A stretch of 32,000 bases of DNA from NCBI RefSeq assembly GCF_007748075.1, contig NZ_CP036280.1, forward strand, positions 900,001-932,000, read 5' to 3'. This document shows positions 5,639-32,000 of the stretch, one piece after another (position 1 is the stretch's first letter; each line of letters begins with the position of its first letter). Below the pieces are notes generated by a model. It saw only the letters and a program-made list of their open reading frames with translations, was not told the origin of the DNA and searched no databases. The DNA is from Mucisphaera calidilacus (GTDB lineage Bacteria > Planctomycetota > Phycisphaerae > Phycisphaerales > Phycisphaeraceae). The position numbers and the translations under genes are program-made.

Positions 5639-5664
5639 GCGTGTGTCCATCCTGAGACAAGAAA

Positions 5665-5690
5665 AGCCCCGGAGCGGTCCGGGGCTTGTT
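5665..5690. terminator. Bidirectional intrinsic terminator between convergent ugd and the PfkB gene
   Basis: AGCCCCGGA (5665-5673), loop GCGG, TCCGGGGCT (5678-5686): a 9-bp GC-rich stem. The minus-strand transcript is followed by UUUUCUUGU (good). The plus-strand transcript is followed by UGUUGGGG (weak). Confidence 0.6.
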
Positions 5691-5717: not shown

Positions 5718-6620
5718 TCAGATGCTGACGATCTGTGTGAAGTGGGCGAGGCGTTTGTCGATGTTGTCGCGGGTGAGTGTTTTCATGCGGTTGAGGGAGA
5801 AGTCTTCGATATTGAAGCTGGCGGTGACGGTGCCGTAGGCGAGTGCCTTGCGGAGACCGATGAGCGAGGTGTCGCCTGTCTCGGTGAGGTAGCCCATCAT
5901 GGCGCCGGCGAAGGAGTCGCCTGCGCCGGTGGGGTCGACGACCTTGTCGGCGGGGTAGGCGGGGAGTGCGGCCCATCCGTCGCGGTGTTTCATGACGACG
6001 CCGTGTTCGCCCTTCTTGATGATGATGAAGGCGGGTCCGAGTTTTTCGAGTTCGGCGGCGGCGACGATGGGGTTTCGATGTCCGGTGAGAGCGTGTGCCT
6101 CGGAGTCGTTGATGATGAGTCCGTCGACTTTTCGGATGACCTCGAGCAGCTCGTCGCGGTTCTGGTTGATGTAGAGGTCGATGGTGTCCATGACGGTGAG
6201 GGTGCTGTCGGGGACGGCGTTGAGGAGGTTGAGCTGGTTGGAGGGTCGGTCGACGGCGAGGAAGACGACTTTGGAGTCGGCGTAGAAGTCGGGGAGTGCG
6301 GGGGGTTCTTCGAGGAGGACGTTGAGTTCGATGCCGACGGTGTCGCGGCCGTTCATGTTCTCGTGGTACTTGCCGTGCCAGCGGAAGGTCTTGGATCCTT
6401 TTCGGATTTCGAGTCCGCGTCGGTCGATGTTGAAGTGGTCGAAGGTGGCGAGGAAGTCGTCGGGGAAGTCGTCGCCGACGGCGGCGAGGACGCGTGGTTG
6501 CGTGAAGAAGGAGGCGGCCGCGGGGAAGTAGATGCCCGACCCGCCGAGGAGGTTCTCTGCGGTGCTGCTGGGCGTGGTGATGGTGTCGATGCAGACGGCG
6601 CCGGTGACGATCAAAGACAT
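5718..6620 (-). CDS. PfkB-family (ribokinase-like) sugar/nucleoside kinase
   Basis: Start ATG at 6620 (MSLIVTGAVCIDTI...) with GAGGA upstream, 300 aa. It has the GG dipeptide (LLGGSG) and the C-terminal ATP/anion-hole motif DPTGAGDSFAG. The upstream part of track ORF 5718..7049 is rejected as low-complexity Arg/Pro-rich. Confidence 0.8.
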   Translation of the reverse strand: MSLIVTGAVCIDTITTPSSTAENLLGGSGIYFPAAASFFTQPRVLAAVGDDFPDDFLATFDHFNIDRRGLEIRKGSKTFRWHGKYHENMNGRDTVGIELNVLLEEPPALPDFYADSKVVFLAVDRPSNQLNLLNAVPDSTLTVMDTIDLYINQNRDELLEVIRKVDGLIINDSEAHALTGHRNPIVAAAELEKLGPAFIIIKKGEHGVVMKHRDGWAALPAYPADKVVDPTGAGDSFAGAMMGYLTETGDTSLIGLRKALAYGTVTASFNIEDFSLNRMKTLTRDNIDKRLAHFTQIVSI

Positions 6621-29395: not shown

Positions 29396-30055
29396 CTACT
29401 GGTTTATGGGGGGTGAAGGGGGGATGAGGACGTGGACGGCGGTGACTTCAGCGCGCTGTTTGAGGGCTTCGAGTTCGAGCTCGGTGCGGTAGATGTCCTT
29501 GCGAAGCTGGGTGCGGAATTCGGGGAGGGGGTCTTCGATCTGGGCTGCGACGGCCTGCGTGAGGAGGTTTCCCTCTTCGTCGGGTGTGAGTTGCTCGAGG
29601 TGCTTGCGGCAGACAGCGAGTCTGGCTTCGAGTTCAGCCTGCTGGCGAGCGATGTCGGATGCGTGCTGCTTGTTGAGTATGTCGGTGACGATCGCGATGT
29701 GTTGTAATACAACTGTGTTTATTGCGGATCGAAACACAGGGTTTTCGGTCGAGACCACGATGCGGATGAGATTCGTCTGATAGCTGGTTCTTCCGTCTTT
29801 GTACTCGATGCGTTCGGCAACGATGTGTCCGTCGAAGTCAGTGCCTACGTCTTCGACAACCACTGCTCGAGCGGTCGCGGCGATGGCGGGTTCGTTGAGG
29901 ATCACCAGCGCGGTCAATAAGGCGTTCGGGCTGTCGTCGATGAGTTTGATGATGCTGACGGATTCCCAGCGTTTGTCCTGGGCTTGTGCCTGCAGGGCTG
30001 TTGATGAGGCCAGGAGAGCGAGGATTGCTGTGAAGCTGATCAGAAGACGTTGCAT
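29396..30055 (-). CDS. Secreted hypothetical protein with a C-terminal coiled-coil-like region
   Basis: Signal peptide MQRLLISFTAILALLASSTALQAQA. The C-terminal half is rich in heptad-like E/L/Q/R (ARQQAELEARLAVCRKHLEQL...ELELEALKQRAE). No assignable family. It contains a lower-GC patch at 29700-29800. Confidence 0.55.
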   Translation of the reverse strand: MQRLLISFTAILALLASSTALQAQAQDKRWESVSIIKLIDDSPNALLTALVILNEPAIAATARAVVVEDVGTDFDGHIVAERIEYKDGRTSYQTNLIRIVVSTENPVFRSAINTVVLQHIAIVTDILNKQHASDIARQQAELEARLAVCRKHLEQLTPDEEGNLLTQAVAAQIEDPLPEFRTQLRKDIYRTELELEALKQRAEVTAVHVLIPPSPPINQ

Positions 30056-30082
30056 GGCTGATCTCCGGAAGGGTTGGGGGTG

Positions 30083-30631
30083 TCATTCCTTGAAGTGGTC
30101 GACGTGTGCCCAGGGGAGGTTGCCGCCGTTCTCCCGTTTTTTCTGCTTGAGTTTCTCGATGACGATGTGGGGCAGGAGCTGGTGGAGTCGGTCGATCTCG
30201 CCGCCTGCCGCGATCTGCTTGATGAGTGTGGAGCTGGTGAAGGCGTAGTGTTCGCCTGTCATGATGAAGACGGTCTCGATGCTGGTGAGTGCGCGGTTGG
30301 TGAGTGCGAGCTGGAACTCGAAGTTGAGGTCGGTGACGTTGCGGAGTCCTCGGACGATGGCGTTGGCCTTGATGGACTTGGCGTAGTCGATGGTGAGACC
30401 TTCGAAGCGGTCGACCTCGACGTTGGGGAGGTCGGAGACGAGTTCCTCGATGATGGCGACGCGTTCGACGGAGGGGAAGATGGATTTCTTGGCGGGGTTT
30501 CGAGCGACGGCGACGATGAGGCGGTCGAAGAGGGGGCAGGCGCGTCGGATGATGTCGAGGTGTCCGCTGGTGATGGGGTCGAAGGTGCCGGGGAAGAGGG
30601 CGGTCTTGGGGTGGTGGGGGTAGTCGGTCAT
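30083..30631 (-). CDS. coaD: Pantetheine-phosphate adenylyltransferase
   Basis: PGTFDPITSGHLDII (T/HxGH nucleotidyltransferase motif), IVRGLR, and SSTLIKQI (the usual coaD SSSxxR element is degenerate here). 182 aa, with a basic C-terminal extension of about 20 aa. Confidence 0.9.
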   Translation of the reverse strand: MTDYPHHPKTALFPGTFDPITSGHLDIIRRACPLFDRLIVAVARNPAKKSIFPSVERVAIIEELVSDLPNVEVDRFEGLTIDYAKSIKANAIVRGLRNVTDLNFEFQLALTNRALTSIETVFIMTGEHYAFTSSTLIKQIAAGGEIDRLHQLLPHIVIEKLKQKKRENGGNLPWAHVDHFKE

Positions 30632-30642
30632 GGGAGGAACAG

Positions 30643-30671
30643 TTTAGCAGGGGCGTGGTGAGCCGATAGAA
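30643..30671 (+). promoter_or_regulatory. Candidate promoter of tRNA-Leu
   Basis: TTTAGC (30643-30648), 17 nt, TAGAAT (30666-30671). The mature tRNA 5' end is 11 nt downstream of the -10 box. Confidence 0.3.
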
Positions 30672-30681
30672 TAAGGGTCGC

Positions 30682-30765
30682 CGCGGGTGTGGCGGAACTG
30701 GCAGACGCGCGAGATTTAGGTTCTCGTGGGATAAAACCCGTGCAGGTTCGATTCCTGTCACCCGC
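30682..30765 (+). tRNA. tRNA-Leu (anticodon UAG), class II with long variable arm, CCA not encoded
   Basis: Hand fold: acceptor GCGGGTG/CACCCGC plus discriminator A. Anticodon stem CGAGA/TCTCG with loop TTTAGGT, giving anticodon TAG. Variable arm GGG-ATAAAA-CCC. T arm GCAGG-TTCGATT-CCTGT. Confidence 0.9.
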
Positions 30766-30797
30766 ATTGTTGACGCTTTGAATGAAGGGCTGTTTTG

Positions 30798-31649
30798 ATG
30801 AACCGACGCCGATTCCTGCGGGTCTTGTTGTCGTTTGTGCTGGTGGTGGTGCTGCCTGGGTCTCTGGCTGCGGAGCCGGTGCGGGTGTTGTTCGTGGGGA
30901 ACAGCTACACGTATTTCAACAATCTGCCGGAGCAGGTTCGTCAGATGGCGGCGTCGCGTGGGATCGAGGTGGAAGTTCATCGCGCGTTGCACGGGGGTTA
31001 TTCGTTCGAGCGGCATTGTGTGGAGGAGGATGGTTCGCCTGGGGATGCGTGGGCTCGGATTGCTGAGGGCGGCTGGGACGTCATTGTGATGCAGGAGATG
31101 AGCACGGGGACGCTCTGGGATCGGCGGCCGCGTTTTTTTGAGTATGGCGAGAAGCTGGTGGGTCATGTGCGGGCGCACGAGGAGGCGGAGGATCCGGCGA
31201 GGATCGTGCTGTACATGACATGGGCACGTCGGTGGATGCCCGAGACGCAGCCGTGGATCACGCAGGGGTATTCGGAGCTGGCGACGGAGTTGGGTCTGGA
31301 GGTGGCGCCGGTGGGTTTGGCGTGGGAGCGCAGCCGTGTGGAGCGGCCGGATCTGGAGTTGTTCGATCCGGACCAGACGCACCCGGGGCCGAGCGGTTCG
31401 TATCTGGGGGCGTGTGTGTTCTTCCAGGTGATGTTCGACGAGCGTCCGGTGGGGTTGCCGCGGCGGATGGAGGGGAAGAAGTGGCAGCCGAAGGACGGTC
31501 TGCCGACGCTGGTGGATCTGAGCGCGGAGGATGCGAGGTATTTTCAGCGTCTGGCGGAGGAGGTTGTGGGGTCGTACGACCCTTCGGAGCACGTGGGTGA
31601 TCTGGGCGAGGCTCCGCCCTGGCGTAACCCGCCGAAGCGGCCGGAGTGA
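30798..31649 (+). CDS. Exported SGNH/GDSL-type hydrolase
   Basis: Twin-arginine-like signal MNRRRFLRVLLSFVLVVVLPGSLAA. Block I is VLFVGNSYT (nucleophile Ser) and block V is DQTHPGPSG (D-x-x-H). ATG at 30798 is preferred to the TTG at 30795. Confidence 0.7.
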   Translation: MNRRRFLRVLLSFVLVVVLPGSLAAEPVRVLFVGNSYTYFNNLPEQVRQMAASRGIEVEVHRALHGGYSFERHCVEEDGSPGDAWARIAEGGWDVIVMQEMSTGTLWDRRPRFFEYGEKLVGHVRAHEEAEDPARIVLYMTWARRWMPETQPWITQGYSELATELGLEVAPVGLAWERSRVERPDLELFDPDQTHPGPSGSYLGACVFFQVMFDERPVGLPRRMEGKKWQPKDGLPTLVDLSAEDARYFQRLAEEVVGSYDPSEHVGDLGEAPPWRNPPKRPE

Positions 31650-31682
31650 TGTGAGGAACGTGCAGGTTGTTCGGGGTTCGAC

Positions 31683-31710
31683 TTGACGCGGGGTCGTGGG
31701 CGGTCATACT
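31683..31710 (+). promoter_or_regulatory. Sigma-70-like promoter positioned for a leaderless mini-ORF transcript
   Basis: TTGACG (31683-31688), 16 nt, CATACT (31705-31710), 6 nt, then ATG at 31717. Confidence 0.4.
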
Positions 31711-31716
31711 TCGGGC

Positions 31717-31788
31717 ATGGACATGGTCTTTAGCTGGTTTTTTGGCTATTGGTTTACGCGGCGAGCGGCCGTGGCGGTGTCCATCTAA
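31717..31788 (+). CDS. Candidate 23-aa leader peptide MDMVFSWFFGYWFTRRAAVAVSI (aromatic-rich)
   Basis: ATG...TAA is read directly from the sequence. Seven of nine consecutive codons (31729-31755) are Phe/Trp/Tyr. The ORF sits between a promoter and an intrinsic terminator. It is too short for composition-based coding evidence. Confidence 0.45.
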   Translation: MDMVFSWFFGYWFTRRAAVAVSI

Positions 31789-31816
31789 CCCTTGATTGAT
31801 TTAAGGCATTGACGGA

Positions 31817-31846
31817 CCCCGACGCGGCTGAGCGTCGGGGTTTTTT
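31817..31846 (+). terminator. Strong intrinsic terminator (proposed attenuator terminator)
   Basis: CCCCGACGC (31817-31825), loop GGCTGA, GCGTCGGGG (31832-31840), then TTTTTT (31841-31846). Confidence 0.8.
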
Positions 31847-31968
31847 GTTGTCATTGGGCCTGGCGTTCAGGTTCAAAGCCCCGACGAGTCTGATTCTGCC
31901 GATAGAGGTACTTCGTTGGCAGATCGGTCAGCCCCGGCTGGAAAGCCTGAAAGCAGAAGGAAACGGCC

Positions 31969-32000
31969 ATGATCATTGTGATGCGTGCGGGAGCCCGTCA
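31969..32000 (+). CDS. 5' end of a gene truncated by the window edge; the N-terminus resembles class I-beta DAHP synthases with an N-terminal regulatory domain
   Basis: AAGGAA is followed by ATG at 31969, and the translation is MIIVMRAGAR... Only 10 residues are visible. The resemblance to MIVVLKPG-type DAHP synthase N-termini is from memory and is weak evidence. Confidence 0.3.
   Translation, partial: MIIVMRAGAR

Follow-up and report, generated by a model that had tools for sequence, protein, structure and literature searches.

Escherichia coli has three isoenzymes of 3-deoxy-D-arabino-heptulosonate 7-phosphate (DAHP) synthase and two repressors to govern them. Its DAHP synthase genes are controlled by these repressors, TyrR and TrpR, and not by attenuation (PMC11802643). 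The closest known system to the one considered here is the aroR-aroF attenuator of Corynebacterium glutamicum, in which aroF, the DAHP synthase gene, is preceded by a leader that encodes a peptide with the residues Phe-Tyr-Phe and was found by RNA-seq (Mentz et al., 2013, PMC4046766), and which is reported, as summarised in a later account, to respond to limitation for Phe but not for Tyr (Neshat et al., 2014, via PMC11802643; see also PMC7356990). In mycobacteria, leaderless short open reading frames (ORFs) encoding polycysteine are cysteine-responsive attenuators, controlling translation rather than termination (Canestrari et al., bioRxiv 10.1101/834739). Here we analyse a 32-kb stretch of DNA from Mucisphaera calidilacus (Phycisphaeraceae, Planctomycetota), hereafter the window, near the end of which a 23-codon ORF rich in Phe, Trp and Tyr codons and an intrinsic terminator precede a DAHP synthase gene. 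Comparison with related sequences leads us to propose, with a probability of roughly 0.85, that this unit is a ribosome-mediated leader-peptide transcription attenuator, which would set DAHP synthase expression by the supply of charged tRNA-Phe, tRNA-Tyr and tRNA-Trp. A sensor of aromatic supply acting on an aromatic-pathway gene had already been suggested by a sequence-only reading of the window; the comparison supports that suggestion, and wherever a possible refutation could be checked in silico, the result went in its favour.

The same reading had noted a gene opening with MIIVMRAGAR at ATG 31969 and guessed that it encodes DAHP synthase. The gene is there (31969-32000, + strand, as are all features below unless stated otherwise), runs off the end of the window, and has a Shine-Dalgarno sequence, AAGGA (31957-31961), that is invariant in a four-sequence alignment (A1). 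The hydrolase encoded upstream of the leader shares 100% identity with a protein of M. calidilacus. Exact-sequence look-ups with the window's proteins gave no match, and the three closest relatives (L001-L003) were reached through homologues of this hydrolase; in them the hydrolase gene, the leader and a further gene follow one another in that order. The further gene carries PF18152 (DAHP_snth_FXD) and PF00793 (DAHP_synth_1) in a second Mucisphaera species and in a Phycisphaeraceae metagenome genome; in the third relative, a short metagenome contig, it has no Pfam entry, but at its start it can be aligned with the DAHP synthase genes of the others. Since the orthologue start, MIVVMR(P/A)GA, matches that of the window in alignment and the syntenic orthologues contain both domains, the guess was correct, and the gene can be assigned, via these orthologues, as a type-I DAHP synthase with an N-terminal ferredoxin-like domain. 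Species-representative genomes scanned with the DAHP synthase protein yielded 80 Phycisphaeraceae loci (69-100% protein identity), and the resulting non-redundant set of 83 loci comprises the window, L001-L003 and 79 scan loci, with L004 left out as a duplicate of L001. A covariance model (R1) was trained on 60 of the 61 ATG leaders described below, and covariation was assessed on a 60-sequence alignment.

The leader ORF (31717-31788) encodes MDMVFSWFFGYWFTRRAAVAVSI and is the 3' part of a longer GTG ORF in a program-made list; none of the three related loci with available gene calls has its counterpart annotated as a gene. The regulatory codon run F-S-W-F-F-G-Y-W-F (31729-31755) lies where the sequence-only reading had placed it, and seven of its nine codons are aromatic (four TTT, two TGG and one TAT). 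The four closest sequences, including the window, keep the promoter hexamers, the ATG, the frame, the stop position and the terminator, and the peptides of the three relatives read MDTLFAYFFSYWFTRPRAVLVSI (L003), MDNVFAYFYGFWFTRLRAVAVSS (L001) and MDTLFSYFFSYWFTRRQAVLVSA (L002). Differences among relatives are synonymous or replace one aromatic residue by another, and the N-terminal residues are not conserved. More broadly, 61 of the 83 loci have, in the 450 nt before the DAHP synthase gene, an ATG ORF of 17-28 codons with at least five aromatic residues in nine (further examples are MSGTSFFFGYFWFDRTRTALGMK and MTHRAFYFGYFYFDLADAAQGHV). The covariance model finds exactly one match, upstream of DAHP synthase and on its strand, in 71 of the 83 sources, and no second match within the 32-kb window. 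Ten of these 71 loci lie outside the training set, some of them with a GTG or TTG start or with fewer aromatic codons. Overall, 61-71 of the 83 loci keep the ORF together with its frame, aromatic run and stop position, and the mini-ORF is indeed conserved in relatives.

These distributions bear on a more trivial explanation, already raised by the sequence-only reading, under which the hairpin does no more than terminate the upstream SGNH/DUF4886 hydrolase gene, and the mini-ORF arose by chance. The hairpin does lie on the same strand as the hydrolase gene, about 165 nt past its stop codon. However, of 2078 short ATG ORFs counted as background in 656 kb of flanking DNA, not one has at least six aromatic residues in nine, as compared with 55 of the 83 loci within 450 nt upstream of DAHP synthase, which rules out a chance ORF. 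The hydrolase gene, moreover, is found upstream only in the three closest relatives; elsewhere the neighbour differs and the promoter-ORF-terminator unit remains, with ORF and terminator persisting in 71 loci, and a conserved promoter separates the hydrolase gene from the hairpin. Because the unit stays with DAHP synthase while the neighbour changes, it is not merely a hydrolase terminator, and we consider that sole role refuted, with a negligible chance of being right.

Codon choice within the leaders differs from that of the surrounding genes. Every Phe codon of the window leader (four) is TTT and its Tyr codon is TAT, choices that had been described as locally disfavoured, and five neighbouring genes of the window bear this out (TTT:TTC 5:40, TAT:TAC 8:21). 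Across the family, TTT:TTC is 188:82 in the leaders and 42:254 in the DAHP synthase genes, and TAT:TAC is 51:36 and 57:289, respectively. A leader holds on average 4.4 Phe, 1.4 Tyr and 1.1 Trp codons, with all three amino acids represented in 56 of 61. This preference for the rare TTT and TAT codons fits a sensor tuned to pause.

The leader ORF is preceded by a sigma-70-like promoter whose parts were found exactly where the sequence-only reading had put them: a -35 hexamer TTGACG (31683-31688), a 16-nt spacer, a -10 hexamer CATACT (31705-31710) and then 6 nt (tcgggc) up to ATG 31717, with no Shine-Dalgarno sequence. A consensus scan of 30500-32000 finds two promoter-like sites where 0.2 are expected from shuffled sequences, the other one preceding a tRNA-Leu gene. 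Among related loci, 56 of 61 have such a promoter (TTGACx, 16-17 nt, xATAxT, mostly 9-11 of 12 matches) ending 6-11 nt before the ATG, with TTGACx at the same spacing, so that transcription is predicted to start on the A of the ATG or as much as about 4 nt before it. A Shine-Dalgarno 4-mer precedes only five of the 61 leader ORFs, as opposed to all 61 of the DAHP synthase genes. With a -10 box abutting the ATG and no Shine-Dalgarno sequence, we infer that the leader mRNA is leaderless. As a separate observation, in L027, L042 and L072 (GTG) and in L079 (TTG) the leader ORF apparently begins with a non-ATG codon directly after the -10 box. Non-AUG starts on leaderless mRNAs are inefficient in E. 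coli and common in mycobacteria, and these four cases would be noteworthy if their mRNAs are leaderless.

A unit with its own promoter and a strong terminator, and with an RNA as highly structured as this one (folding z-score of -4.5 against shuffles for the 134 nt at 31717-31850), could also be pictured as an independent small gene, whose stand-alone transcript would make a hydrophobic, aromatic-rich peptide or a trans-acting small RNA while DAHP synthase is transcribed separately. There is a precedent for such activity, as terminated attenuator RNAs and leader peptides can work in trans in Sinorhizobium (PMC6614838, PMC7298713). Nevertheless, in the window the consensus scan places no promoter-like site in the interval from the terminator to the DAHP synthase gene (31847-31968), and the gap from terminator to DAHP synthase ATG, which ranges from 30 to about 220 nt across the family, is just 30-45 nt in several loci. 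A gap of 30-45 nt leaves no space for a separate promoter, and the gene must therefore be transcribed through the terminator. The gap varies in length and content and contains no family-wide element, and the unit always lies directly upstream of DAHP synthase on the same strand. A rare-codon preference would be unexpected where the gene product matters, the N-terminal residues of the peptide are unconserved, and its C-terminal half is explained by the RNA pairing described below. We therefore hold a free-standing small gene to be very improbable. Within the attenuator model, the terminated leader RNA of about 130 nt could, by analogy with rnTrpL of Sinorhizobium, also act in trans.

The terminator itself had been described as a 9-bp GC stem with a T6 tract at 31817-31846. 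Both are present, and the stem (31817-31825/31832-31840) extends to 12 pairs (31814-31843), eight of them G-C. Its 5' arm, which we call region 3 (31814-31825), can pair either with the 3' arm, region 4 (31832-31843), or with region 2 (31766-31782), the last sense codons of the leader ORF. In the covariation alignment, the terminator helix has 95% of its cells paired, and in 7 of its 10 pairs both sides have changed; the T6 tract (31841-31846) is conserved in an alignment of the relatives (A2), and the whole (31814-31846) is the strongest terminator-like site of the 32-kb window. The antiterminator that the sequence-only reading had drawn by hand, pairing 31766-31782 with 31814-31830, was exact when checked base by base: 17 positions with two mismatches (31774/31822 and 31778/31818) and two G-U pairs, a duplex worth -24.9 kcal/mol vs. 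-23.3 for the terminator hairpin. The stop codon (31786-31788) does follow region 2 closely as that reading had it, but the intervening gap is 3 nt (31783-31785), the 4 nt given there counting to the first stop base. Between the two strands of the antiterminator, a small spacer hairpin (CCUUGA...UUAAGG, 31790-31806) forms the apical part of the loop in folds of the window, and a similar one appears in single-sequence folds of L001, L002 and L003.

Evidence that this alternative pairing is maintained comes from the 60-sequence alignment, in which region 2 corresponds to columns 69-83. The antiterminator core (columns 74-83/139-148, i.e., 31770-31779/31817-31826) is 83% paired, vs. about 40% when the partner columns are slid, and 7 of its 10 pairs have changed on both sides. 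Columns 77/145, for example, are G-C in 48 sequences and A-U in 10, and columns 80/142 are G-C in 44, G-U in 10 and A-U in 5. When the terminator 5' arm changes, the antiterminator strand within the ORF follows: at 77/145 the pair is fully Watson-Crick in 10 of the 10 sequences concerned, and the terminator 3' arm at that position in the same 10 sequences gives U-G in seven and U-A in two. RNAalifold, applied to the alignment ended before region 4, returned the same antiterminator helix unprompted (-27 kcal/mol). Compensatory change and a fold made with the terminator 3' arm withheld thus both point to conservation of the alternative pairing in relatives, as the attenuator proposal anticipated. 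The pairing of region 2 with region 3 also explains why the peptide ends in a conserved "AALG" or "AVLV", which reflects a constraint on the RNA and not on the protein. An outer antiterminator helix (columns 58-63/159-164) was considered and set aside: it is 74% paired with almost no compensatory change, and we regard it as a by-product of the resemblance of region 1, at the start of the ORF, to region 3.

Region 1 (AUGGACAU, 31717-31724) is clade-specific, and in minimum-free-energy folds it pairs with 31776-31783 (GUGUCCAU). The pairing GGACA/UGUCC is kept in the four Mucisphaera-clade sequences and not family-wide, and in this clade 31757-31762 also pairs with 31768-31773. Judging from these folds, region 1 would serve as an anti-antiterminator in ribosome-free Mucisphaera-clade leaders. 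Other clades have small local hairpins in varying registers.

Two alternative helices do not by themselves reveal what selects between them, and the switch might be real yet answer to a protein or small ligand, as with TRAP-like factors, T-boxes and riboswitches, in place of a translating ribosome, an idea to which the lack of a conserved region 1:2 helix lends something. At gathering thresholds, however, a tRNA is the sole Rfam match in the window, and no leader, riboswitch or T-box family is matched. (Weak matches at E <= 10 within 31500-32000, to anti-hemB, RybB, C0465 and the rnk leader, cover the terminator hairpin only and were discarded.) There is also no conserved structure capable of forming an aptamer between the ATG and region 2. 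A ligand- or protein-set switch needs none of the conserved frame, the spacing from stop codon to region 2, the synonymously varying aromatic run or the abutment of promoter and ATG. We accordingly give such a factor only a slim chance of being the selector, and return to the ribosome.

The spacing between elements fits ribosome-mediated attenuation. From the aromatic run to the region 2 core there are 14 nt in 52 of the 60 sequences, which is just past the reach of a ribosome stalled on the last run codon; from the core to the stop codon there are 7 nt in 41 of the 60, which places the core well within a terminating ribosome; and from the stop codon to the terminator arm there are 28-31 nt in 43 of the 60. 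We simulated a ribosome by blocking a 28-nt stretch in folding, either in the full-length leader or in the nascent transcript, before region 4 exists. With the ribosome on the first, middle or last aromatic codon of the nascent transcript, nucleotides of the ORF hold the terminator arm in 90-98% of sequences, vs. 28% with the ribosome on the stop codon. In the full-length leader at equilibrium, a ribosome on the stop codon gives the terminator in 100% of sequences, and one on the first aromatic codon gives it in 44%. In the window, a ribosome at F5, W7 or F9 switches the minimum-free-energy fold to the antiterminator, and one at the stop codon yields the terminator. The terminator state of the window has an energy of -57.8 kcal/mol and the antiterminator state -52.6, a difference of 5 kcal/mol. 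Among the relatives, the single-sequence minimum-free-energy fold is the antiterminator in about one quarter.

On the observed anatomy and its conservation, the covariation in both helices, the geometry, the codon bias, the missing Shine-Dalgarno sequence and the linkage to DAHP synthase, we build a model that adds a start site, translation of the ORF, stalling and a response to each of the amino acids. Transcription would begin at, or a few nucleotides from, the A of ATG 31717, giving a leaderless mRNA on which the leader ORF would be translated. With aromatic aminoacyl-tRNAs in good supply, the ribosome would pass the F/W/Y run and reach the stop codon at 31786, where it would cover region 2; region 3 would then pair with region 4, and the terminator hairpin and T6 tract would halt RNA polymerase about 120 nt before the DAHP synthase gene. 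When any of the three amino acids is scarce, the ribosome would stall inside 31729-31755 and leave region 2 bare, which starts 10 nt past the last run codon and whose conserved core starts 14 nt past it. Region 2 would pair with region 3 as soon as the latter is made, the terminator would be blocked, and polymerase would proceed into the DAHP synthase gene.

Several observations weigh against this model. No element was found in 12 of the 83 loci (L013, L023, L026, L034, L035, L039, L040, L043, L047, L057, L063 and L082). At full-length equilibrium, a ribosome on the last aromatic codons still yields the terminator, which means that the model requires region 3 to find region 2 before the synthesis of region 4; we rate the nascent-transcript calculation as the more relevant of the two, and this stays a weak point. 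The compensatory-change counts include related sequences, and since covarying sequences share ancestry they overstate the number of independent events. Finally, ribosome-free nascent leaders mostly fold as the antiterminator, and RNAalifold finds no region 1:2 helix (anti-antiterminator or pause hairpin) across the family alignment (-5 kcal/mol). Taken together, these last two points suggest that the default in the absence of translation may be read-through, unlike in the E. coli trp leader.

Two features of loci that lack the leader may be recorded beside this list. In L034, L035, L043 and L057, a same-strand upstream coding region ends about 50-80 nt before DAHP synthase. In L040 and L047, where the aromatic leader is likewise absent, a tRNA-like sequence closely resembling the tRNA-Leu of the window lies just upstream of DAHP synthase.

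If the attenuator operates as proposed, transcription-translation coupling and leaderless translation would both occur in this lineage, and the committed step of aromatic biosynthesis would be under a single sensor for Phe, Tyr and Trp together. A wider reading joins several claims, namely that this is the first ribosome-mediated attenuator family of the Planctomycetota, that it is Phycisphaeraceae-wide, leaderless and mixed in its sensing of Phe, Tyr and Trp, and that it works with no conserved 1:2 hairpin. Taken jointly these can be advanced only tentatively, and we think it rather more probable that one or another of them fails. Were they all true, ribosome loading on the emerging 5' AUG would provide the coupling of transcription to translation, a run of 6-8 mixed Phe, Tyr and Trp codons would make a three-input OR gate on a single entry enzyme of the shikimate pathway, and read-through would be the untranslated default, as there is no conserved 1:2 hairpin. 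Gene regulation in the Planctomycetota is almost unstudied, and the element offers a testable cis-regulatory case with 71 natural variants, in a species of this phylum that is in culture. The covariance model and the anatomy given here are usable for annotating Phycisphaerae genomes, and provide a possible design for aromatic amino acid biosensors.

Further structures lie between the terminator and the DAHP synthase gene. About 10 nt past the T tract, a second hairpin (31856-31874; GGGCCUG, loop GCGUU, CAGGUUC) survives changes in its stem in the four Mucisphaera-clade sequences (CCUG/CAGG, UUCG/CGGA, UCCG/CGGG and CCCG/CGGG, with a similar G-Y-G-K-U loop) but does not extend to the wider family. 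It could stabilise the read-through mRNA or serve as a site for its processing. The sequence at 31879-31886, CCCCGACG, repeats the terminator 5' arm (31817-31824) and could pair with the 3' arm in read-through transcripts. It has a counterpart with one compensatory change in L003, a weaker one in L002 and none in L001, and may be a coincidence. In L005, L006, L009, L012 and L016-L021, an extra long GC-rich hairpin (cgggcgggggcg...cgcccccgcccg, followed by caggaacaccaaggag) stands just before the DAHP synthase start codon, and could be a second, clade-specific regulatory or stabilising structure.

Elsewhere in the window, coaD and the hydrolase gene flank a tRNA-Leu gene (anticodon TAG, 30683-30766) that has its own promoter-like site at 30644-30672. 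On the - strand, an ORF of 584 codons (29838-31592) spans the coaD, tRNA-Leu and hydrolase genes; this and similar long antisense ORFs are artefacts of high G+C content, not genes. The only other strong hairpin of the intrinsic-terminator type in the window is on the - strand at 5664-5687 (AAGCCCCGGACCGCTCCGGGGCTT, then a T-rich tail), between ORFs that end near 5650 and start near 5718.

Set against the described systems, the enterobacterial trpL, pheL and hisL leaders share with this element the regulatory codon run, the terminator, an antiterminator that excludes the terminator and takes its 5' strand from the end of the leader ORF, and a stop codon near region 2. They differ in having a 5' untranslated region with a Shine-Dalgarno sequence, and a conserved 1:2 pause or anti-antiterminator hairpin that gives superattenuation when there is no translation; each also responds to a single amino acid, and their targets are terminal-branch operons (pheA, trpE), not DAHP synthase. 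At gathering thresholds, none of the Rfam leader families (Phe_leader, Trp_leader, His_leader, Leu_leader, Thr_leader and the leu/phe leader) has a match in the window. The mycobacterial polycysteine ORFs are alike in being leaderless and short, with a run of codons for one amino acid that acts as a ribosome-stalling sensor for a downstream operon, and different in sensing cysteine and in belonging to the Actinomycetota.

The sequence-only reading had called the combination of a leaderless leader peptide with attenuation unusual. This stands as far as the phylum is concerned; since leaderless leader peptides used for attenuation are already documented in Actinobacteria (10.1101/834739), where C. 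glutamicum also has the leader peptide aroR in front of aroF (PMC4046766, PMC11802643), the combination is new for the Planctomycetota and not new in kind. We found no specific literature report of attenuators or leaderless mRNAs in Planctomycetes or Phycisphaerae, the survey of Lopatovskaya et al. (2010) falling outside our coverage. A leaderless start, a mixed Phe/Tyr/Trp sensor and control of the entry enzyme are each known elsewhere, and have not been documented together.

The strongest resemblance is to aroR-aroF of C. glutamicum, where a short leader with aromatic codons likewise lies directly upstream of a DAHP synthase gene and a stalled ribosome raises downstream expression, as proposed here; C. 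glutamicum also makes extensive use of leaderless transcripts, a likeness to what is predicted in M. calidilacus. It differs in belonging to the Actinomycetota and in having three regulatory codons with no Trp, as against 6-8 here that nearly always combine Phe, Tyr and Trp. The C. glutamicum aroF enzyme belongs to a DAHP synthase subclass other than the type I with a ferredoxin-like domain. Given the distance between the phyla and the shortness of the elements, which we compare here by description only, an origin independent of aroR appears the more likely for the Phycisphaeraceae leader.

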